Origin: a virus
Lineage: Duplodnaviria; Heunggongvirae; Uroviricota; Caudoviricetes
Direction: 5' to 3' (one strand)
IMG/VR virus record: IMGVR_UViG_2563366915_000001
DNA: 34,673 bases
Shown: positions 4,481-33,440 of the stretch, piece after piece
Layout of the letters: each line of letters begins with the position of its first letter
Position numbering within the stretch: position 1 is the stretch's first letter
Notes under the pieces: model-generated
What the model saw: only the letters and a program-made list of their open reading frames with translations
Told to the model about the DNA's origin: nothing
Databases searched by the model: none
Position numbers and translations under genes: made by a program

Positions 4481-4771
4481 TTAGTGATTCAGACCGTTGC
4501 CGCGTCCGTCGAGAAAAACTTCCACGAGCAAGTCACGGGTATAAGTGCGCTCAATGCCGCGATGCAGATAAAGTCGTCCGCGTAAATTAGCTGATGCAGT
4601 CCAGGTACCATCTTTGCGTTTGACCAGCATTCCTGGCATGACCGCACCGCGATTAACGGTCTGCGTTCCGTAATGTTGATGAACCATAAAAACTCCTGCC
4701 CGTAAGCTGGGCTGCTGAACATATAAAGACTTCTGCGCGTATTCAGGCGGTGGATGGCCGCCGGTTGTCAT
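4481..4771 (-). CDS. First ORF of the PL operon; kil-like by position, possibly N-terminally extended (96 aa)
   Basis: Ends where lambda kil ends relative to gam; no arginine-rich motif, so not N-like; no cIII-like sequence. Identity to lambda Kil is not verified. Confidence 0.4.
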   Translation of the reverse strand: MTTGGHPPPEYAQKSLYVQQPSLRAGVFMVHQHYGTQTVNRGAVMPGMLVKRKDGTWTASANLRGRLYLHRGIERTYTRDLLVEVFLDGRGNGLNH

Positions 4772-4964
4772 AACTAAGCCGCCTCGTTGAAGCGACTAAG
4801 GTATGAAATGTTGAGTTGATTTCAGCTGGTCACACCGACGTTCACGCGTCCGTTTCATCCCTCGCACTCCCCGAAGCCTGCTGAAATTCAAGCTGCGGAT
4901 CTAAGCGGTCATCGCAACGGTGAATCAGGTAGTTGCCGTATCGTTGTGTTGTTGCGATGAACTT

Positions 4965-5169: not shown

Positions 5170-6102
5170 CTATTCGATTTTTTTAACCATGTAGTTACGT
5201 CGTGATGTTCCTAATCTTTCATTGTGAATCTCAGAAACGCTTACTACGAGCGATATTCGTTCACCAACTTTATATTTACTTTGAATTTCTCCTAACATAT
5301 CAATCGGATAAGAAGCCTTTATTTTTCCAAGCTCGCTTGCAATCTCCAATTTCCCGTACATGGATAAAATAGCAAGTTCGCCTGATATATGCTCATCCGG
5401 TAGCTGAATGACCTTCGTTAAAGCTAAGCGAGCATTCAGTTTTTTTATATCTTCTGAAGAAATTGACACTTGTCTGGTACCATCACTTAAAGGTCCAATC
5501 CAAGTAAGATCAAAGTTAAGACTATATTTTTCGCACTCATTTATGATGTTTTTTAGGTTAGCTGTTGATTGCGAACCAATTTCGGCAATTTTAGCCGTGA
5601 ATGTTTCTTCATCAATGGATGAGAGTAGTGCAAAAATCTCCTTAACAGCATGACTGGATACTGTTTCGATGAGCTCGCAAGAACCAGTAGAAAAAGTAAC
5701 ACCTAACTTCGTCGAACCTGGACGCAAGTCTGCCAATCTCATGTCTAATGATTTTTTAACATCAATCGGCACACGACTAGAATCTTTCCCAGATCCAAGT
5801 CGGTAAACTGCTTTCTGTACAAGGGATGCGAGATTACCTGAAATTACAGATAGAATATCTAACGGAATAGACCCGAAATCGACCAAAACACCTTTTAATC
5901 TCAACTCCATGAAATCACGTAAAGGATGTTGGTTATCGATTGCACGTTGTCTCTCTCGGAGATCGCTCAGATGGGAGTCAAGTGATCTAAATATAATGTC
6001 ATCAGCAAATGATCTCCCCTTATTTTGAGCAAGCAGATCCACATCGCGTTGAATGAACGCAATTCGCTCCTTGAGGGAGTTGAATGTTTTTTCTTCGCTC
6101 AT
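5170..6102 (-). CDS. Uncharacterised 310-aa protein, second gene of the cassette in the rexAB slot
   Basis: Long ORF in AT-rich DNA; its ATG overlaps the stop of the upstream ORF (ATGA at 6099-6102); no motif I can recognise (no Walker A, no clear HEPN Rx4-6H, no TM segment). Confidence 0.7.
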   Translation of the reverse strand: MSEEKTFNSLKERIAFIQRDVDLLAQNKGRSFADDIIFRSLDSHLSDLRERQRAIDNQHPLRDFMELRLKGVLVDFGSIPLDILSVISGNLASLVQKAVYRLGSGKDSSRVPIDVKKSLDMRLADLRPGSTKLGVTFSTGSCELIETVSSHAVKEIFALLSSIDEETFTAKIAEIGSQSTANLKNIINECEKYSLNFDLTWIGPLSDGTRQVSISSEDIKKLNARLALTKVIQLPDEHISGELAILSMYGKLEIASELGKIKASYPIDMLGEIQSKYKVGERISLVVSVSEIHNERLGTSRRNYMVKKIE

Positions 6103-6572
6103 AACATTACCCTCACGAGGCCTTTAGGATTCTCCTTCCGATCAAAACCAAACCACCCTCTCCAGTAACTTCGCCTTTCACTATAATCGATTTCTGGATG
6201 ATTTTCAGGCAGCAAAAGAACGTCAATGCTGTAGTTTTCTTTAATAAAATCTCTATTTAACAATGAGCTGACCAATGGCATCAGCGTGTTTGGCAAAGAG
6301 TTTAGGGCCAAATAATCGACGACCACGAGTATATCTATGTCATCAGGTTCAGGTTTCTCTGTAGTGAATGAACCATCGATCCACACTTCAGAGAAACATA
6401 GACACTGCTGATTAACAAGTTTAAATTGCTCAATAAGCTGTATAAAATTACAGTATAGCATACTTCTTCTAACGGATTTTGGGAAGGTGTCGACACAAAG
6501 AGACTTGATGCCATCACTATCCATATCATGAAATCCTGCTGTAAGAAGAGGTGGGAAGCTAGGCTTTTCCAT
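6099..6572 (-). CDS. Putative minimal nucleotidyltransferase (pol-beta superfamily, MNT/SMODS-like), 157 aa
   Basis: Translation contains WIDGSFTTEKPEPDDIDILVVVD, i.e. hG[GS]-x9-DxD, the signature of pol-beta-fold NTases, with a further acidic stretch (DVLLLPEN) downstream; first gene after cI on the same strand. Confidence 0.65.
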   Translation of the reverse strand: MEKPSFPPLLTAGFHDMDSDGIKSLCVDTFPKSVRRSMLYCNFIQLIEQFKLVNQQCLCFSEVWIDGSFTTEKPEPDDIDILVVVDYLALNSLPNTLMPLVSSLLNRDFIKENYSIDVLLLPENHPEIDYSERRSYWRGWFGFDRKENPKGLVRVML

Positions 6573-6653: not shown

Positions 6654-7343
6654 TTAACCATGCTTCCTGTACGTCTGCGGCATGCTCCCAATAACCTTAC
6701 CGAAGATGAACACCCGGTTCATCTCGTCTTTCTCGATCGGGTCCCACGGTGAGTAGCTTTTGTTATCAGAGATGACCAGCAGCTTATCCTTCATCATTTG
6801 CAGGCGCTTTACATGGGCTGTGTCGTCGTACAGAAACGCATAGATACCATCACCGTCGAAAGATTTAACTGTGATATCAACGAACAGCAGATCACCTGGT
6901 TCGATCGTTCCTGACATGCTGTCACCACGCACGTTAATGATGCGGATATTTTCCGCCTTCCTACCATCGAACATGTGACGAGCATCGTCAAACGAGTACT
7001 CAACCGAGCGTAGAACTTCTACAAACTCACGGTTGATGACTCCCGGCCCAGCACTGACTTCTATATCAAGAACGTCAATCTTGAAGTATTTGGAATGGCT
7101 GACAGTTGATTGTATTGGTTGCACTGTACTGTCTGACATATTTCCAACGCCAGAAGATAACCATTCTGCGCGCACACCCAAAGCGTTCGCGATCTCCACG
7201 ATTTTAGTTGTTTGATTAGCTTTCCCTGTTTCGATTTTCTGAATAGCAGCCTGGCTAACCCCGACCAAATCCCCAAGCGCCTTTTGTGTAAGGCCTCGCG
7301 CTAATCTGGCTTCTTTAAGTCTTTCTGAGAGTGTTGTTTTCAT
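6654..7343 (-). CDS. cI: CI-type prophage repressor, N-terminal HTH plus C-terminal S24/LexA-like peptidase; start taken at MKTTLSERL
   Basis: HTH region LTQKALGDLVGVSQAAIQKIETG; C-terminal autocleavage-domain pattern (RGDSMSGTIEPGDLLFVD...VKR); divergent from cro across an operator region. Confidence 0.9.
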   Translation of the reverse strand: MKTTLSERLKEARLARGLTQKALGDLVGVSQAAIQKIETGKANQTTKIVEIANALGVRAEWLSSGVGNMSDSTVQPIQSTVSHSKYFKIDVLDIEVSAGPGVINREFVEVLRSVEYSFDDARHMFDGRKAENIRIINVRGDSMSGTIEPGDLLFVDITVKSFDGDGIYAFLYDDTAHVKRLQMMKDKLLVISDNKSYSPWDPIEKDEMNRVFIFGKVIGSMPQTYRKHG

Positions 7344-7447
7344 AGTCCAAATGTACAACCAAGGTTTTATTCCATCAAACGAAAATGGTTGTTGACTAAA
7401 AACAACCATAGTTTTAATCTTGATTCAAATTAACCACGGAGGTTGTT
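7344..7447. promoter_or_regulatory. OR/PR/PRM region between cI and cro
   Basis: PR candidate TTGACT (7392-7397), 17-nt spacer, TAATCT (7415-7420); inverted repeat atggttgtt-N7-aacaaccat embraces the -35; same half sites as the PL region. Confidence 0.55.
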
Positions 7448-7678
7448 ATGAACCCAGCTATCAAAACAGCGATCAATATCGTTGGTTCACAAAAGAAACT
7501 GGGCGCTGCTTGCGAAGTTTCACAGCAGGCCGTCTATAAGTGGCTTCACAACAAAGCAAAGGTATCCCCTGAACATGTCGGCAGCATTGTTACGGCTACT
7601 GGTGGAGTAGTGAAGGCATACCAGATTCGCCCGGATCTTCCGAAGTTGTTTCCACACACCGAAAAGAACGCAGCTTAA
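7448..7678 (+). CDS. cro: Cro-like HTH regulator (76 aa)
   Basis: Small HTH protein (QKKLGAACEVSQQAVYKWL) transcribed divergently from cI immediately after PR. Confidence 0.75.
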   Translation: MNPAIKTAINIVGSQKKLGAACEVSQQAVYKWLHNKAKVSPEHVGSIVTATGGVVKAYQIRPDLPKLFPHTEKNAA

Positions 7679-7747
7679 ATTTCCATTTCACGCTCTTTAA
7701 CAATAAGCAATCAACTTAACAGTCAATTCAAACTAAAGGAGTCAATT

Positions 7748-8287
7748 ATGCAACCACTTCCATACCAACAGACTAGCGGATTTAGCCCGACTGCGGTGAT
7801 AAATCGTTCTCAAACAAAACAGGTGCCAGGCCACGAAAAAATCCGTGATGCCGTCCGCGCCTGGTCGGCTGTAGATAATCAGGATGTCGTTGCCACACTC
7901 ATTGTGAATGAGTATCGGGAGCAGGGCGGCGGCACCATCGATTTCCCTGATGATGTCAGCCGTGCACGCCAGAAGCTGTTCCGCTTCCTCGATAACAAAT
8001 TCGATTCTGAAAAATACCGAAATAACGTGCGTGAACTGACCCCGGCAATTCTGGCGGTACTACCGCTGGAATATCGCGGTTACCTGGTTGAGCAGGATAG
8101 CTTCATGGCTAGGTTGGCTGAAATGGAAAAGGAACTCAGTGAGGCAAAACAGGCTGTCATTCTCAACGCACCACGCCACCAGAAACTGAAGGAAATTAGT
8201 GAAGGTATTGTATCGATGTTTCGTGTGGACCCAGATCTGGCTGGTCCATTGATGGCGATGGTTACTACCATGCTGGGGGCGATATGA
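7748..8287 (+). CDS. YdaT-like protein occupying the cII position (179 aa)
   Basis: Motifs NEYREQGGG and LTPAILAVLPLEYR resemble what I recall of Rac YdaT; no lambda-cII-like sequence. Confidence 0.5.
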   Translation: MQPLPYQQTSGFSPTAVINRSQTKQVPGHEKIRDAVRAWSAVDNQDVVATLIVNEYREQGGGTIDFPDDVSRARQKLFRFLDNKFDSEKYRNNVRELTPAILAVLPLEYRGYLVEQDSFMARLAEMEKELSEAKQAVILNAPRHQKLKEISEGIVSMFRVDPDLAGPLMAMVTTMLGAI

Positions 8288-8373
8288 CAGGTTCAGAAAT
8301 GGCGAAAGCCGGTCTGCTGGAACAGAACCGACTTTCAGGTGCAAATCGTAACACACTCATTGCGGGAGGAATT

Positions 8374-9303
8374 ATGGCAAACACTGCTGAGATATTCAAT
8401 TTTCCAGTGCCGGATGCGGCACAAAAGGAGCCGCGCGTGGCAGATCTCGATGATGGTTATACGCGCATTGCAAATGAGTTGCTGGAAGCTGTGATGCTGG
8501 CCGGATTAACACAGCACCAGCTTCTGGTCTTCCTGGCTGTCATGCGCAAAACATATGGCTTTAATAAAAAACTGGATTGGGTGAGCAACGAGCAACTTTC
8601 CGAATTGACCGGGATATTGCCGCACAAGTGTTCTGCTGCAAAAAGCGTTCTGGTAAAGCGTGGGATTCTTATTCAGAGCGGGCGGAATATCGGCATTAAT
8701 AATGTGGTCAGTGAATGGTCAACATTACCCGAATCAGGTAAGAAAAATAAAGTTTACCTGAAAGAGGTAAATTTACCTGAATCAGGTAAGAAAAGTTTAC
8801 CCAAATCAGGTAAAGGCGTTTACCCGAATCAGGTAAACACAAAAGACAAACTAACAAAAGACAATATAAAACCTTTTTCGTCCGAGAATTCTGGCGAATC
8901 CTCTGACCAGCCAGAAAACGATCTTCCTGTGGTGAAACCGGATGCTGCAATTCAGAGCGGCAGCAAGTGGGGGACAGCAGAAGACCTGACCGCCGCAGAG
9001 TGGATGTTTGACATGGTGAAGACTATCGCACCATCAGCCAGAAAACCGAATTTTGCTGGGTGGGCTAACGATATCCGCCTGATGCGTGAACGTGACGGAC
9101 GTAACCACCGCGACATGTGCGTGCTGTTCCGCTGGGCCTGCCAGGACAACTTCTGGTCCGGTAACGTGCTGAGTCCGGCCAAACTCCGCGACAAGTGGAC
9201 CCAGCTCGAAATCAACCGGAACAAGCAACAGGCTGGCGTGACAGTCGGCAAACCAAAACTCGACCTGACAAACACTGACTGGATTTACGGGGTGGATCTA
9301 TGA
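8374..9303 (+). CDS. O: Replication initiator O; start taken at MANTAEIFNF with GGGAGGA RBS
   Basis: N-terminal O-type domain (ADLDDGY...LLVFLAVMRKTYGFNKK), lambda-like C-terminus ending ...DWIYGVDL, iteron array inside the gene; 4-bp overlap with P. Confidence 0.9.
   Translation: MANTAEIFNFPVPDAAQKEPRVADLDDGYTRIANELLEAVMLAGLTQHQLLVFLAVMRKTYGFNKKLDWVSNEQLSELTGILPHKCSAAKSVLVKRGILIQSGRNIGINNVVSEWSTLPESGKKNKVYLKEVNLPESGKKSLPKSGKGVYPNQVNTKDKLTKDNIKPFSSENSGESSDQPENDLPVVKPDAAIQSGSKWGTAEDLTAAEWMFDMVKTIAPSARKPNFAGWANDIRLMRERDGRNHRDMCVLFRWACQDNFWSGNVLSPAKLRDKWTQLEINRNKQQAGVTVGKPKLDLTNTDWIYGVDL
8725..8880. repeat. Replication origin: five 17-19-bp iterons (consensus tttacccgaatcaggtaa) followed by an A-rich segment, inside O
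   Basis: Direct repeats at 8725-8741, 8753-8770, 8772-8789, 8796-8813 and 8819-8836, then acacaaaagacaaactaacaaaagacaatataaaacc; same layout as lambda ori. Confidence 0.8.
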
Positions 9304-10001
9304 AAAACATCGCCGCACAGATGGTTAACTTTGACCGTGAGCAGATGCGTCGGATCGCCAACAACATGCCGGAACAGTATGACGAAAAGCCACAGGTACA
9401 GCAGGTAGCGCAGATCATCAACGGTGTGTTCAGCCAGTTACTGGCAACTTTCCCGGCGAGCCTGGCTAATCGTGAGCAGAACGAACTGAACGAAATCCGC
9501 CGCCAGTGGGTTCTGGCTTTCCGGGAAAACGGGATCACCACGATGGAACAGGTTAACGCAGGAATGCGCGTAGCCCGTCGGCAGAATCGACCATTCCTGC
9601 CATCCCCCGGACAGTTTGTAGCCTGGTGCCGGGAAGAAGCATCCGTTATTGCCGGACTACCAAACACCAGCGAGCTGGTTGATATGGTTTACGAGTATTG
9701 CCGGAAGCGTGGCCTGTATCCGGATGCAGAGTCTTATCCGTGGAAATCAAACGCGCACTACTGGCTGGTTACCAACCTGTATCAGAACATGCGGGCCAAT
9801 GCGCTTACTGATGCGGAATTACGGCGCAAGGCTGCCGATGAACTGACTTGTATGACCGCGCGAATTAACCGTGGTGAGGCGATACCTGAACCAGTAAAAC
9901 AACTTCCTGTCATGGGCGGTAGACCTCTAAATCGTGCACAGGCTCTGGCGAAGATCGCAGAAATCAAAGCGAAGTTCGGACTGAAAGGAGCAACTGTATG
10001 A
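9300..10001 (+). CDS. P: Replication protein P (DnaB helicase loader), 233 aa
   Basis: Translation MKNIAAQMVNFDREQMRRIANNMPEQYDEKPQVQQVAQIINGVFSQLLATFPASLAN... is near-identical to lambda P. Confidence 0.95.
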   Translation: MKNIAAQMVNFDREQMRRIANNMPEQYDEKPQVQQVAQIINGVFSQLLATFPASLANREQNELNEIRRQWVLAFRENGITTMEQVNAGMRVARRQNRPFLPSPGQFVAWCREEASVIAGLPNTSELVDMVYEYCRKRGLYPDAESYPWKSNAHYWLVTNLYQNMRANALTDAELRRKAADELTCMTARINRGEAIPEPVKQLPVMGGRPLNRAQALAKIAEIKAKFGLKGATV

Positions 10002-10300
10002 CGGGCAAAGAGGCAATTATTCATTACCTGGGGACGCATAAGAGCTTCTGTGCGCAGGACGTTGCTGCGGTAACAGGCGCAACAGTAACCAGTATAAATC
10101 AGGCTGCGGCTAAAATGGCACGGGCAGGAATCTTGGTCGTTGATGGTAAGGTCTGGCGAACGGTGTATTACCGGTTCGCTACCAGGGAAGAACGGGAAGG
10201 AAAGGTGAGCACGAATCTGATTTTCAAGGAGTGTCGCCAGAGTGCCGCGATGAAACGAGTGTTGGCAGTGTATGGAGATATGAACTTAAACTTGCTGTGA
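9998..10300 (+). CDS. ren: Ren (Rex-exclusion negation protein), 100 aa
   Basis: Translation MTGKEAIIHYLGTHKSFCAQDVAAVTGATVTSINQAAAKMARAG... matches lambda Ren. Confidence 0.9.
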   Translation: MTGKEAIIHYLGTHKSFCAQDVAAVTGATVTSINQAAAKMARAGILVVDGKVWRTVYYRFATREEREGKVSTNLIFKECRQSAAMKRVLAVYGDMNLNLL

Positions 10301-10548: not shown

Positions 10549-12051
10549 TTAAATTGCATCTGCAAACTCTGGGGTTTTTCGCTCAGGTATAATTGATGAG
10601 TTGCTGTTGTCACTTTTTTTATTTTCATGATTACGAATAGCCAATGACTCATTAAAGTCTTTTGCGACTGCTGTCTCAATAAATTCAATTTCTGAATCAG
10701 AGTGTTTTTTAACAGCTTCTTTGATCTCATCCAGAGTAACATAGAAAAACTCTTTTCTACGATTTACAAGATTGACTCTCTTTTTATCGAAGACATCATG
10801 TAGTTTTTTTTCTAATGATGGAGCGTCCTCCGAATAAATCATGGCATGTACATCAAAAATAAAAGGAACAGATGCATCACCGAGCTCATTTACACGGTCT
10901 TGCGGATCAAGACGTCGTGTCATGCCTATTTTATAAACATTCTCCCCAAAAGAACCTATGTTCGAAATAATATAAACATGACCTTGTTTGGTTTGTTGTG
11001 CCATGGATAATGCTCTTTGATGCTTTGATTCAGCCTGCGACAAACTCTGTTCTAGTTCGGCAATGCGATTTTCGAGGCGCTGCTTCATGTCACCAGTAAC
11101 TTTTTCCATTTCCTTTCTTGCAGCTTCAATTGCTTTTTTATAACGGCGCTCTTCTGCCTCTGCGTCTTGCATGGCCTTTTCTATTTCTCGTTGTGCACGC
11201 TCCTCCTCTCTCATTTGTGCCCTTATTTCTGCCTGTTCTTCTTTTTCTTTCTGTTTTTGCTCACGATATTCATGGGTAAGCCACAATTCCTCAAGTTTTT
11301 TATTGAGGTATTTAGTGTTTATATATATGTGATTTTGCTCGTTTAGTTTATTTATGGCCTCAAATGCCTTTGTGATGCGTTCTTCCATTTTAGTGATGTT
11401 TTTCCACGTGCAATTGCTAATTGCAGCATCACATTCATTATTAAATGCTCTAGTAGTTAGCCTGATATTTCTGTCTGTCATTTTTTTACCCTCTGCTCGA
11501 GAGCCTTCAACAGTCCATTGGGTTGTACAATATACTGCGCCAGAGTGGGTTTTATCCCGCAGCATTAATTTCTGTTCATCCCTGATGGATTTTATTTTGT
11601 TTTTAAATTGCTCTGAATCTTCAAAATTAAAATGAGGTTCGTAAAATCCTAGTTCGGCTAGCTCAACATCTTCTGAATAAATAGAAATTTGCCTTACTAG
11701 TTTATCATATATTTCTTTCTTCTCTTTATAAGTTCTTCTTAGCTCTTGGATTTGTTTATTGATACCATCCATTTTTTCAATGGTGTTTGTTAGTTCATTA
11801 TTGGCATTTTCTTTTACTTTTAGGGATTCTTCTTTTATTATGGAGCATTCTTGCTCTGTTTTCTCAATAAGCTTCTTACATTCTTCTTCTACATTAAAAT
11901 AATCTGCAAAGCGAGATTTGTATTCTTCATTTTTTTGATTGCTATCACTTAATTCTAATTGTATTTTTTTGATGCGTTTGATTGCAGCTATATAAAGAAC
12001 AAGAACAACCAATAAAAATATGATTGCAAGTAATAGAGGAGTTTGAGTCAT
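10549..12051 (-). CDS. Membrane-anchored coiled-coil protein with DUF4041-like region and C-terminal T5orf172 (GIY-YIG-like) domain, 500 aa
   Basis: N-terminal hydrophobic helix (LLLAIIFLLVVLVLYIAAI); long E/K/R/Q-rich heptad region; C-terminal GHVYIISNIGSFGENVYKIGMTRRLDPQDRVNELGDASVPFIFDVHAMIYSEDAPSLEKKLHDVFDKKRVNL...KEFFYVTLDEIKEAV fits T5orf172; antisense to the early-right operon; AT-rich. Confidence 0.8.
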   Translation of the reverse strand: MTQTPLLLAIIFLLVVLVLYIAAIKRIKKIQLELSDSNQKNEEYKSRFADYFNVEEECKKLIEKTEQECSIIKEESLKVKENANNELTNTIEKMDGINKQIQELRRTYKEKKEIYDKLVRQISIYSEDVELAELGFYEPHFNFEDSEQFKNKIKSIRDEQKLMLRDKTHSGAVYCTTQWTVEGSRAEGKKMTDRNIRLTTRAFNNECDAAISNCTWKNITKMEERITKAFEAINKLNEQNHIYINTKYLNKKLEELWLTHEYREQKQKEKEEQAEIRAQMREEERAQREIEKAMQDAEAEERRYKKAIEAARKEMEKVTGDMKQRLENRIAELEQSLSQAESKHQRALSMAQQTKQGHVYIISNIGSFGENVYKIGMTRRLDPQDRVNELGDASVPFIFDVHAMIYSEDAPSLEKKLHDVFDKKRVNLVNRRKEFFYVTLDEIKEAVKKHSDSEIEFIETAVAKDFNESLAIRNHENKKSDNSNSSIIPERKTPEFADAI

Positions 12052-12360
12052 TCGTGCTATTCCTTACGGACAATTTAAGACGTTTTGTATTAAATCCTGT
12101 TCAATGTGTATGCGGGTGATTGCTACCGCTTACAATCTTCATAATTATCAGTTAGATAGACTCGCTAGTAAATAATTTCATTTTTTGCAATATTCTTATT
12201 GAATATTTCAATTTATGAAATGAACTCTTTATCCTTTCAAGGTGAAAGGTTTCTTCTTCGGAAATATTTGCTCTCGTGTGACGTATAAAGACCTTTGATT
12301 TTCAAAAATCAGTAGGGAATAATATAGTTACTGTCGGCCTGAACACCCGGTGGTGGGGTT

Positions 12361-12450: not shown

Positions 12451-12863
12451 GGTGTTTTACTTCGACAGCCAGAATTGGGAGTCTCTATTCGTCTGGCGGC
12501 TAAAGGTGATATGGAAATCGTTATGTTTTGGCCTGAGGTAGTTGTAACTGTTGTAGCAGCTATGGATGTGATCATCATGGTGTCCATTTACTGGGGTTGA
12601 CGACATGATTTATCCGGCGCTATATTCTGTGCGTTGCCGCAAAATCGGCACACGGGATTGGCGTCCCGGGATACTACTCAACGCATACCGCGTTAAGCGG
12701 TTTTTTTGTGCGCTAAGCACGGCTATGCCCAAATTATGGTGGGCTGTGTGAGGGCTTCTTCGGAAGCGCCGGGTTTGAGTAGCCGGTTACGCCAACCTTA
12801 CACAGTTCACCACCAGTCGATTGGCGTCGTTGGTGGTGATGGTTAACCTGATGAGGTGATACT

Positions 12864-13472
12864 ATGACTACTCAATTAGCATTCCACAAAACGACGTTTA
12901 CCCCGATTTGCCACAATAACAGAATTTGGCTTACTGCCACTGAAGTTGGTTTAGCACTGGAATATGCGGACGATAAAGCAGTTCAGCGCATTTACTCTCG
13001 GCACTCAGATGAATTCACAGATATGATGACAAGGGTGGTCAAAGTGACCACCCCTCGTGGAATGCAGGAGTCTCGAGTATTTAGCCTTCGCGGAGCCCAT
13101 TTGATCGCCATGTTTGCTCGTACTCCTGTGGCCAAAGAATTCCGCCGCTGGGTTCTGGATATTCTCGATCGAGAAGTTCAACAATCCCCAATCACAAAAC
13201 AATTCACTGATAACGAACTTTGCACACTCGCCTGGTTATGGCGAGCAAGTGATACGATGTTAACCGCCTGCCAGAACGTTACGCCCCTTCTTCAGGTCGC
13301 AGAGCATCGCGAAGCAGGTAGATTCACTTCAATCGAACAAGAATATCCTCGGATACTCAACAGGGCGCGAGAAATCCTTGCCAGAGAAACGGCGCATGTA
13401 AAATTCCAACCGTGGCAGGATGATAAGTGGAGTCGTGTGTTACCATATTTCCGTCAGAATCTGTTGCAATAA
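12864..13472 (+). CDS. Bro-N domain antirepressor-like protein (202 aa)
   Basis: N-terminal region RIWLTATEVGLALEYADDKAVQRIYSRHSDEF...RGMQESRVFSLRGAHLIAMFARTPVAKEFRRWVLDIL fits the Bro-N/AntA pattern. Confidence 0.7.
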   Translation: MTTQLAFHKTTFTPICHNNRIWLTATEVGLALEYADDKAVQRIYSRHSDEFTDMMTRVVKVTTPRGMQESRVFSLRGAHLIAMFARTPVAKEFRRWVLDILDREVQQSPITKQFTDNELCTLAWLWRASDTMLTACQNVTPLLQVAEHREAGRFTSIEQEYPRILNRAREILARETAHVKFQPWQDDKWSRVLPYFRQNLLQ

Positions 13473-14217: not shown

Positions 14218-14294
14218 TTTTCAGCACATTTGATTTCCAATAATCAACCAGCCATAATCATGCCATTGGAGCTTGAACAACTCCGGTGACTTCT

Positions 14295-30892: not shown

Positions 30893-33440
30893 ACCGGTAG
30901 GCGATCTGGTCGTTGATTTAAGTCTGGATGCGGCCAGATTTGACGAGCAGATGGCCAGAGTCAGGCGTCATTTTTCCGGTACGGAAAGTGATGCGAAAAA
31001 AACAGCGGCAGTCGTTGAACAGTCGATGAACCGGCAGGCGCTGGCTGCACAGAAAGCGGGAATTTCCGTCGGGCAGTATAAAGCCGCCATGCGTATGCTG
31101 CCTGCGCAGTTCACTGACGTGGCCACGCAGCTTGCAGGCGGGCAAAGTCCGTGGCTGATCCTGCTGCAACAGGGGGGGCAGGTGAAGGACTCCTTCGGCG
31201 GGATGATCCCCATGTTCCGGGGGCTTGCCGGTGCGATCACCCTGCCGATGGTGGGGGCCACCTCGCTGGCGGTGGCGACCGGAGCGCTGGCGTATGCCTG
31301 GTATCAGGGCAACTCAACCCTGTCCGATTTCAACAAAACGCTGGTCCTTTCCGGCAATCAGGCGGGACTGACGGCAGATCGTATGCTGGTCCTGTCCAGA
31401 GCCGGGCAGGCGGCAGGGCTGACGTTTAACCAGACCAGCGAGTCACTCAGCGCACTGGTTAAGGCGGGGGTAAGCGGTGAGGCTCAGATTGCGTCCATCA
31501 GCCAGAGTGTGGCGCGTTTCTCCTCTGCATCCGGCGTGGAGGTGGACAAGGTCGCTGAAGCCTTCGGGAAGCTGACCACAGACCCGACGTCGGGGCTGAC
31601 GGCGATGGCACGCCAGTTCCATAACGTGACGGCGGAGCAGATTGCGTATGTTGCTCAGTTGCAGCGTTCCGGCGATGAAGCCGGGGCATTGCAGGCGGCG
31701 AACGAGGCCGCAACGAAAGGGTTTGATGACCAGACCCGACGCCTGAAAGAGAACATGGGCACGCTGGAAACCTGGGCAGACAGGACAGCACGGGCATTCA
31801 AATCCATGTGGGATGCGGTGCTGGATATTGGTCGTCCTGATACCGCTCAGGAGATGCTGATTAAGGCAGAGGCTGCGTTTAAGAAAGCAGACGACATCTG
31901 GAATCTGCGCAAGGATGATTATTTTGTTAACGATGAAGCGCGGGCGCGTTACTGGGATGATCGTGAAAAGGCCCGTCTTGCGCTTGAAGCCGCCCGAAAG
32001 AAGGCTGAGCAGCAGAGTCAACAGGACAAAAATGCGCAGCAGCAGAGCGATACCGAAGCGTCACGGCTGAAATATACCGAAGAGGCGCAGAAGGCTTACG
32101 AACGGCTGCAGACGCCGCTGGAGAAATATACCGCCCGTCAGGAAGAACTGAACAAGGCACTGAAGGACGGGAAAATTCTGCAGGCAGATTACAACACGCT
32201 GATGGCGGCGGCGAAAAAGGACTATGAAGCGACGCTGAAAAAGCCGAAAGGCGTGAAGGTGTCTGCGGGCGATCGTCAGGAAGACAGTGCTCATGCTGCC
32301 CTGCTGACGCTTCAGGCAGAACTCCGGACGCTGGAGAAGCATGCCGGAGCGAATGAGAAAATCAGCCAGCAGCGCCGGGATTTGTGGAAGGCAGAAAGTC
32401 AGTTCGCGGTACTGGAGGAGGCGGCACAACGTCGCCAGCTGTCCGCACAGGAGAAATCCCTGCTGGCGCATAAAGACGAGACGCTGGAGTACAAACGCCA
32501 GCTGGCTGTACTTGGCGACAAGGTCACCTATCAGGAGCACCTGAACGCGCTGGCGCAGCAGGCGGATAAGTTCGCACAGCAACAACGGGCAAAACGGGCC
32601 GCCATTGATGCAAAAAAACGGGGGCTGACTGACCGGCAGGCAGCGCGGGAAGCCACGGAACAGCGCCTGAAGGAACAGTATGGCGATAATCCGCTGGCGC
32701 TGAATAACGTCATGTCAGAGCAGAAAAAGACCTGGGCGGCTGAAGACCAGCTTCGCGGGAGCTGGATGGCAGGCCTGAAGTCCGGCTGGAGTGAGTGGGA
32801 AGAGAGCGCCACGGACAGTATGTCGCAGGTTAAAAGTGCTGCCACGCAGACCTTTGATGGTATTGCACAGAATATGGCGGCGATGCTGACCGGCAGTGAG
32901 CAGAACTGGCGCAGCTTCACCCGTTCCGTGCTGTCCATGATGACAGAAATTCTGCTTAAGCAGGCAATGGTGGGGATTGTCGGGAGTATCGGCAGCGCCA
33001 TTGGCGGGGCTGTTGGTGGCGGCGCGTCCGCGTCAGGCGGTACAGCCATTCAGGCCGCTGCGGCGAAATTCCATTTTGCAACCGGAGGATTTACGGGAAC
33101 CGGCGGCAAATATGAGCCAGCGGGGATTGTTCACCGCGGTGAATTTGTCTTCACGAAGGAGGCAACCAGCCGGATTGGCGTGGGGAATCTCTACCGGCTG
33201 ATGCGCGGCTATGCCACCGGTGGTTATGTCGGTACACCGGGCAGCATGGCGGACAGCCGGTCGCAGGCGTCCGGGAAGTTTGAGCAGAATAACCATGTGG
33301 TGATTAACAACGACGGCACGAACGGTCAGATAGGGCCACAGGCGCTGAAGGCGGTTTATGACGTAGCCCGTAAGGCGGCAATGGATGTTGTGACCGGGCA
33401 GATGCGTGATGGTGGTCTGTTCTCCGGAGGTGGACGATGA
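30885..33440 (+). CDS. H: Tail tape-measure protein H (851 aa)
   Basis: Long alpha-helical Q/A/K/E-rich protein with glycine-rich C-terminal region; matches lambda gpH in position and sequence character. Confidence 0.95.
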   Translation: MAEPVGDLVVDLSLDAARFDEQMARVRRHFSGTESDAKKTAAVVEQSMNRQALAAQKAGISVGQYKAAMRMLPAQFTDVATQLAGGQSPWLILLQQGGQVKDSFGGMIPMFRGLAGAITLPMVGATSLAVATGALAYAWYQGNSTLSDFNKTLVLSGNQAGLTADRMLVLSRAGQAAGLTFNQTSESLSALVKAGVSGEAQIASISQSVARFSSASGVEVDKVAEAFGKLTTDPTSGLTAMARQFHNVTAEQIAYVAQLQRSGDEAGALQAANEAATKGFDDQTRRLKENMGTLETWADRTARAFKSMWDAVLDIGRPDTAQEMLIKAEAAFKKADDIWNLRKDDYFVNDEARARYWDDREKARLALEAARKKAEQQSQQDKNAQQQSDTEASRLKYTEEAQKAYERLQTPLEKYTARQEELNKALKDGKILQADYNTLMAAAKKDYEATLKKPKGVKVSAGDRQEDSAHAALLTLQAELRTLEKHAGANEKISQQRRDLWKAESQFAVLEEAAQRRQLSAQEKSLLAHKDETLEYKRQLAVLGDKVTYQEHLNALAQQADKFAQQQRAKRAAIDAKKRGLTDRQAAREATEQRLKEQYGDNPLALNNVMSEQKKTWAAEDQLRGSWMAGLKSGWSEWEESATDSMSQVKSAATQTFDGIAQNMAAMLTGSEQNWRSFTRSVLSMMTEILLKQAMVGIVGSIGSAIGGAVGGGASASGGTAIQAAAAKFHFATGGFTGTGGKYEPAGIVHRGEFVFTKEATSRIGVGNLYRLMRGYATGGYVGTPGSMADSRSQASGKFEQNNHVVINNDGTNGQIGPQALKAVYDVARKAAMDVVTGQMRDGGLFSGGGR

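Follow-up and report, generated by a model that had tools for sequence, protein, structure and literature searches.

A phi80-type cII gene of the YdaT family in the lysogeny region of a lambdoid phage

The CII protein of phage lambda is a tetrameric helix-turn-helix (HTH) protein with its binding site within its own 5' coding region, where it recognises the direct repeat TTGC-N6-TTGC that flanks the -35 element of pRE at the 5' end of cII. The YdaS and YdaT proteins have been regarded as analogues of Cro and CII by Casjens (2003) and Jobling (2018) (PMC5917428), and experiments on such CII-equivalent homologues have been reported (PMC8630535, PMC9986795, PMC11879457). YdaT of CP-933P functions as a CII equivalent, with TTGATT-N6-AATCAA at the ydaS/ydaT junction as its binding site (PMC9986795); it activates a PRE-like promoter, is non-toxic and "is homologous to CII from Phi80" (Jurenas et al., PMC8630535). 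YdaT of the Rac prophage activates racR 29-fold via a box that overlaps its own start codon (Wons et al., PMC11879457). This box lies over the 5' end of the gene and the activated leftward promoter (PracR4) is about 190 bp away; the racR-ydaS intergenic region is also bound, and the Rac and CP-933P proteins have a footprinted consensus in common and cross-bind despite an identity of 30% (PMC11879457). For the phi80-type subfamily of YdaT, which is the subject here, no experiment was found in the searchable literature.

The window, i.e., the whole stretch of 34,673 nucleotides that was analysed, comes from a virus of the Caudoviricetes (IMG/VR record IMGVR_UViG_2563366915_000001), and the features discussed in the following are collected in Table 1. 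The original prediction, made from the letters of the sequence, described a 179-residue ORF after cro with the motifs NEYREQGGG and LTPAILAVLPLEYR, and this is exactly what the sequence has on re-reading, with ATG as start codon. The prediction also assigned the product to the YdaT family rather than to the CII family of lambda, and here it holds: the Pfam check that it proposed returns YdaT_toxin (PF06254) with E = 8.5e-30 and 103.5 bits, the cut-off being 21 bits. In control scans with the same model, phi80 CII obtains 98.7 bits and YdaT of K-12 Rac 44.7 bits, which means that the window protein outscores the latter. Its PHROG is phrog_163 (E = 3.9e-67, with 163 of the 168 positions of the profile covered), which is annotated "CII-like transcriptional activator"; a scan of the product against NCBIfam gave no model match.

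Table 1. Features of the window that are referred to in the text
Feature	Position	Strand	Remarks
Kil septation inhibitor	4481..4771		separate gene of the window phage
cI repressor	6654..7409	-	251 aa; HTH_3 + Peptidase_S24
OR-type operator palindrome ATGGTTGTTGACTAAAAACAACCAT	7385..7409	.	covers -35-like TTGACT of rightward pR
Best local YdaT-box-like site TTGATTCAAATTAACCAC	7420..7437	.	cI-cro intergenic, just after pR; 1/10 core mismatches; weak
cro	7448..7678	+	76 aa; YdaS_toxin PF15943, E = 4e-17; PHROG 35 transcriptional repressor
Weak leftward promoter candidate TTCACT-17-AACAAT	7614->7586	-	inside cro; 8/12; relaxed scan; speculative
boxA-like element CGCTCTTTAACAA	7691..7703	+	between cro and cII; near-perfect rrn-type; function inferred
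Shine-Dalgarno AAGGAG	7736..7741	+	6 nt 5' of cII ATG; read from sequence; strong RBS
cII	7748..8287	+	phi80-type, YdaT family, 179 aa
Intragenic YdaT-box-like repeat GTGATAAATCGTTCTCAA	7796..7813	.	+49..+66 of cII; candidate; 3/10 core mismatches
M3/oop-like RNA candidate hairpin	8304..8336	-	folding energy -24.1 kcal/mol, z = -2.3
O	8374..9303	+	replication protein, Phage_rep_O; likely true start 8374
P	9300..10001	+	Phage_lambda_P
Ren-like	9998..10300	+	after P
Second perfect-core YdaT-box TTGATTTTCAAAAATCAG	12295..12323	+	in promoter TTGATT-17-AATAAT; drives isrK/C4/Ant
isrK Hfq-binding RNA	12635-12707		RF01394, 58.7 bits
C4 antisense RNA	12732-12817		RF01695, 74.8 bits; a1/b1 target match 12620-12672
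Ant antirepressor	12864-13472		202 aa, phrog_245
Perfect YdaT-box TTGATTTCCAATAATCAA	14230..14258	+	in sigma70-like TTGATT-17-CATAAT; candidate extra operator

The gene occupies the same genomic slot as cII of lambda and many records annotate it "cII", from which one could take the product for an outlying member of the CII family of lambda (PF05269). However, lambda CII is found by PF05269 with 163.8 bits in the same Pfam scan, where the window protein gives no match to this family, and BLASTP between the window protein and lambda CII, with the sequence taken from the real lambda record, detects no similarity (E = 0.37). The proteins have 179 and 97 residues, respectively, and the repeat TTGC-N6-TTGC is absent near the immunity region: its single match in the whole window is at 32579, when 2.8 are expected by chance. 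The HTH and the Arg-Trp motif common to the two families (PMC11879457) amount to a very distant relationship at most. Both the sequence and the fold family already refute membership in the lambda CII family, which retains hardly any probability at all; the product is clearly a YdaT-family protein and not a lambda-CII-family protein.

The same follows from structure. In an AlphaFold2 (AF2) model of the product, built from an alignment of 36 sequences (mean pLDDT 78.7), residues 1-27 are disordered, residues 28-113 form a POU-like HTH domain and helices are predicted at 28-43, 45-58, 70-81, 88-104, 107-113, 119-138, 143-160 and 162-178, so that the long C-terminal ones, i.e., the last three, span residues 119-178. 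A defining feature of YdaT is an unusually long loop of 9-23 residues between helices alpha2 and alpha3 of the HTH (Prolic-Kalinsek et al., PMC9986795), and in the model an 11-residue loop (59-69) separates helices 45-58 and 70-81; the predicted structure reproduces the published helix order of YdaT, including this loop. When the model is compared with the PDB by Foldseek, only 3c4r and 8bt1 are found, both crystal structures of YdaT, with probability 1.00 (target-normalised TM 0.67-0.72, rmsd 2.8-3.6 A, about 120 columns), and all remaining matches have E > 2. In the recognition helix, residues 70-81, R79 has the alignment position of R60 of CP-933P YdaT and R57 of Rac YdaT and does not vary among 36 homologues. 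This arginine is essential for DNA binding by the two latter proteins, and R79 is the predicted essential DNA-contact residue of the window protein.

From the sequence comparison, the closest characterised relative is CII of phi80, with 66% identity across 179/180 residues; the name cII for this homologue dates from the 1988 record X13065. For YdaT of E. coli K-12 Rac (b1358) the identity is 35%, across 96 residues (E = 3e-12). The original prediction took the decision circuitry to be of the Rac type, with a YdaS/YdaT pair. The pair is there, the cro product upstream of cII belonging to the YdaS family (PF15943), but the Rac type is not: the repressor CI proved unrelated to RacR when the two were compared and is a distant relative of phi80 CI (24% identity, E = 4e-8). 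CI is LexA-like and presumably RecA-cleavable. From a LexA-like S24 repressor that is distantly related to phi80 CI and unrelated to RacR, it follows that the switch is phi80-like and not Rac-like. The listed cI ORF, whose start is also that of the annotation of phage PhiR34_1, is probably too long: no profile match extends further N-terminal than residue 23 (MKTTLSERLKE...), and the 22 codons before it overlap the operators, so that Met23, near 7343, is the probable true start. A further operator arm, GGTTGTT, is found at 7441-7447. In lambda, the interval between cro and cII is the position of nutR, and this is where the window has its boxA-like element.

The order repressor (on the minus strand), cro, cII and replication genes is kept in 12/12 divergent phages that were examined. 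What comes after a phi80-type cII varies and may be O and P of lambda type, gp15/14 of phi80, a module with a DnaB-type helicase or a ParB-like module. In 86 loci with near-identical cII, two unrelated cro modules are found upstream and the similarity ends exactly at the ATG of cII. With such exchange of partners on both sides, the occurrence of this cII together with lambda-type O and P is ordinary lambdoid mosaicism. The original prediction of a regulatory circuit grafted onto lambda-type O/P is therefore right as to the genes downstream and wrong in so far as it took the combination to be special. Four IMG/VR loci with O and P of the window type (L134, L140, L210, L211) have the immunity region before O replaced by IS or transposase sequence, in L134 by an IS110-family transposase; these are defective prophages without cI, cro and cII.

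Two inserts in the region resemble defence genes. Between cI and pL, in the position of rex, a two-gene insert at 5170-6572 (minus strand), which phage PhiR34_1 lacks although it is 99.6% identical elsewhere, encodes a DUF6932 nucleotidyltransferase-like protein of 157 aa and a partner of 310 aa; the pair matches A and B of the PADLOC candidate defence system PDC-M63 with E = 7e-43 and 4e-42. After ren, an insert at 10549-12051 (minus strand) encodes a 500-aa protein with a coiled coil and a C-terminal T5orf172/GIY-YIG-like region, which matches the anti-phage defence protein PD-Lambda-1 (PADLOC, E = 1.9e-198). On the pL side of the window no lambda-like N or cIII was found; there are only Kil and, at 4796-4891 (minus strand), a 31-aa Arg-rich ORF with the motif KRTRERR. 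Since no homologue of cIII or N was detected, the control of the stability of the window CII may differ from that of lambda CII.

The binding site of YdaT was searched for as the inverted repeat (W)TGATT-N6-AATCA(A), with a core of 10 nt and the full 12 nt TTGATT-N6-AATCAA. The canonical form of the repeat is absent from the junction of cro and cII in the window, where the best site, at 7697-7714, has three mismatches. For the 5' end of cII itself, 12 homologues with 49-73% protein identity were aligned by codon. Synonymous-site identity in codons 1-15 is 0.74-0.80, to be compared with 0.54 overall, and the homologues have two blocks of conserved nucleotides, ATGCA..CACTT.C.T.TCAACA at +1..+23 and TGATAAA.CG...TCAA at +50..+66. 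The latter reads as an inverted repeat, though an imperfect one, in the register of the YdaT box. In 7/12 divergent loci the single best box core within +/-700 nt, with one mismatch out of ten, is situated at exactly +50, and the site of mEp237, ATGATAAATCGCAATCAA, is one base off the footprinted Rac box. Residue 18 is encoded by the rare Ile codon ATA in 5/6 lineages, compared with an ATA usage of 11% in the rest of these genes (P about 9e-5), and the conservation of a rare codon at +50 points to selection on the DNA. The high synonymous conservation of the 5' end could instead be due to constraints on translation initiation or to recent recombination. The conservation of a box-like element at +50 at the DNA level across the subfamily is an observation made here, as are the family, the fold, the conserved DNA-contact arginine and the position of the gene. 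A direct repeat consisting of two copies of AGTCAATT just 5' of the ATG was considered as a CII site and rejected as part of the cro module, because near-identical cII genes follow an unrelated cro module without the repeat, with similarity ending at the ATG.

Promoters that could correspond to pRE were looked for in the leftward direction, and a consensus scan at standard stringency gave nothing convincing. The weak candidate inside cro that a relaxed scan returned (Table 1) is situated about 190 bp from the +50 site, i.e., at the distance between box and PracR4 in Rac, a match that is treated as coincidence. The best local box-like site, between cI and cro, is a weak candidate in a location reminiscent of the binding of Rac YdaT in the racR-ydaS intergenic region and might be an analogous site.

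We prefer the reading that the gene encodes a CII equivalent, and give it a probability of about 0.85; by analogy with the experimentally characterised homologues, this would be an HTH factor that binds TGAT(T/A)-N6-(A)ATCA and activates a leftward promoter into cI. The protein would be made early, from pR, after Cro, and would assemble to a tetramer by its C-terminal helices. The POU-like HTH, with recognition helix 70-81 and Arg79, would then bind the inverted repeat at or near the 5' end of its own gene, with the cI-cro intergenic region as a possible second place of binding. Bound CII would activate a weak promoter whose leftward transcripts cross cro and enter cI, and this transcription would push the infected cell towards lysogeny. 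For the window phage we infer the tetramerisation, the operator, the promoter that is activated and the direction in which it is regulated.

Two sites further downstream, in the nin region, equal the footprinted YdaT box exactly. One of them, at 14230-14247, is a perfect box (12/12), of which 0.0028 are expected by chance according to an analytic estimate from local composition, and is located 182 nt 5' of ninB; the other, at 12296-12311, has a perfect core (10/10). Both are intergenic, each is contained in a rightward sigma70-like promoter, where it overlaps the -35 element and the spacer, and similar leader sequences come after them. Across at least 120 viral contigs the site before ninB has constant half-sites but 29 variants of the 6-nt spacer, and from this combination the box looks like an operator. 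The second box precedes isrK, C4 and Ant, which together are an immI-like module of P1/P7 style in the nin region.

Could the main task of the protein be, then, to control these nin promoters, e.g., to shut off the isrK-C4-antirepressor module when lysogeny is established? The boxes conform to the consensus footprinted for two homologues that cross-bind at 30% identity, and the window's own +50 site is degenerate. However, the ninB-site box is also present in loci with a lambda-type cII (L201, L221, L252), so that it does not depend on a cII of phi80 type, and TTGATT doubles as a -35 hexamer. In a sample selected by the box, 26/27 informative loci have a YdaT-type cII, but in a control sample selected by NinB the same is true of 52/57 loci, which leaves a test of co-occurrence between box and cII type without power; co-occurrence was dropped as a link between the two. 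Control of the nin promoters as the main role is for these reasons unlikely. A wider proposal, that phi80-type CII recognises TTGATT-N6-AATCAA, the box of Rac and CP-933P YdaT, at its own +50 and also at the nin promoters, beyond the immunity region, is tentative and somewhat doubtful. If it were true, the gene would read its N-terminal extension through the +50 box, the nin targets would include the isrK-C4-antirepressor promoter, and an analogue of CII would directly gate antirepressor and nin expression while the choice between lysis and lysogeny is made. The control by CII would then have a second, as yet undescribed arm.

The start of O determines what lies between cII and the replication genes. 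The long version of O, which starts at 8284 and overlaps cII by 4 nt, is probably wrong and the true ATG is probably the one at 8374, because it has a GGAGG RBS, aligns with the start of phi80 gp15 and agrees with profile matches from residue 31. With this start, cII and O are separated by an 86-bp spacer, with the candidate hairpin inside it and a leftward promoter-like sequence, TTGAAT-17-CATAAT, at 8399->8371. The cII stop codon, the hairpin and the O start align with the spacers of phi80, HK639, mEp237 and HK225, in which the annotation is "M3 RNA, homolog of lambda oop"; an Rfam scan of 7300-8500 gave no match to an oop/M3 family.

The family carries the name of a toxin, and the original prediction accordingly suggested a non-canonical, perhaps toxic role. 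On this explanation the product would be the toxin in a YdaS/YdaT toxin-antitoxin pair, a true toxin or an inhibitor of cell division that serves primarily to harm the host. The explanation has in its favour the names given by Pfam and NCBI ("Bacterial toxin ydaT") and the filamentation and death that follow when Rac YdaT is over-expressed (PMC11879457). However, the toxin-antitoxin idea is a computational prediction from 2007, unconfirmed by experiments (PMC5917428, PMC9986795); tests of it were negative (PMC5917428, PMC8630535), the CP-933P protein being non-toxic (PMC8630535), and the toxicity of Rac YdaT goes by way of a degenerate, non-canonical site at host rcsA that the CP-933P homologue cannot use (PMC11879457). 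The gene is, moreover, fixed in the cII slot of viable plaque-formers (phi80, mEp237, HK225, HK639), its fold is that of an HTH DNA-binding protein and the phage already has Kil. Lambda CII, when over-expressed, is toxic too. The toxin explanation is largely refuted and very improbable, and the predicted toxic role finds no support; the homologues are CII equivalents (PMC8630535, PMC9986795, PMC11879457, PMC5917428).

The gene is a standard lysogeny regulator, phi80-type cII, which is known already, occurs very often and is annotated in many records. Of 50,697 phage records searched by tblastn, 44 contain a homologue, including phi80 (X13065), mEp237, HK225 and HK639; where annotated, it is called cII, "CII-like transcriptional activator" or "CII decision making protein", and near-identical phage records label the gene cII. 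Phages PhiR34_1 and Turner, for example, are 99-100% identical. Among protein clusters at 90% identity, 705 match the window protein at E <= 0.001, some with 1,600-2,000 members, and NCBI names for the matching clusters are "toxin YdaT domain-containing protein" or "regulator". Relatives are present in at least 560 IMG/VR contigs, and the nucleotide sequence of cII is present at 90% identity or more in 2,214 of 5,426 complete genomes of E. coli (about 41%). One gene thus has two labels, the "toxin YdaT domain-containing protein" of RefSeq/PGAP and Pfam in thousands of genomes and the cII of phage annotators. The present evidence and the literature favour the latter, and "phi80-type cII" is the correct label. 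From this follows that screens for toxins or toxin-antitoxin systems should leave the gene out of their counts, the family name YdaT "toxin" being misleading. The locus also shows again that a switch of lambda style is an assembly of interchangeable, non-homologous parts, and, for a subfamily this common in E. coli, the +50 element and the nin boxes are concrete candidates for operator sites.

Compared with the known systems, the window gene is most similar to that of phi80 (JX871397 PHI80_49; X13065), whose product also belongs to PF06254 and where the identity includes both the N- and the C-terminal extension. In phi80 and in mEp237, HK225 and HK639, the orthologue has the same slot, from cro to cII to the replication initiator, is followed by the spacer with the M3/oop-like RNA as in the window, and has 5' nucleotide blocks in common with the window gene. 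The copy of the +50 box-like element in the window is more degenerate than those of mEp237 and HK225. Unlike phi80, the window has another immunity module of cI and cro, and lambda-type O and P replace gp15/14.

YdaT of CP-933P (PDB 8bt1) has the same fold as the window protein with an identity of only 26-30%, approximately, and the fold is also like that of 3c4r, YdaT from E. coli O6. CP-933P YdaT and the window protein both have the long alpha2-alpha3 loop, and their recognition helices, RNTQKIFRWLDK and RARQKLFRFLDN, respectively, are similar. The window protein differs from the Rac and CP-933P proteins by a disordered N-terminal extension of 27 aa and a C-terminal extension of about 40 aa, and it has two extra C-terminal helices (143-178) where the tail of CP-933P YdaT is disordered. 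Rac YdaT, like the window protein, belongs to PF06254 and is encoded after a cro gene of the YdaS family, but it has 140 aa instead of 179, and the replication genes of Rac are ydaU/V. Lambda CII, finally, has the same genomic slot and presumably the same job, to establish lysogeny via a leftward promoter towards cI, and is unrelated to the window protein in sequence and family.
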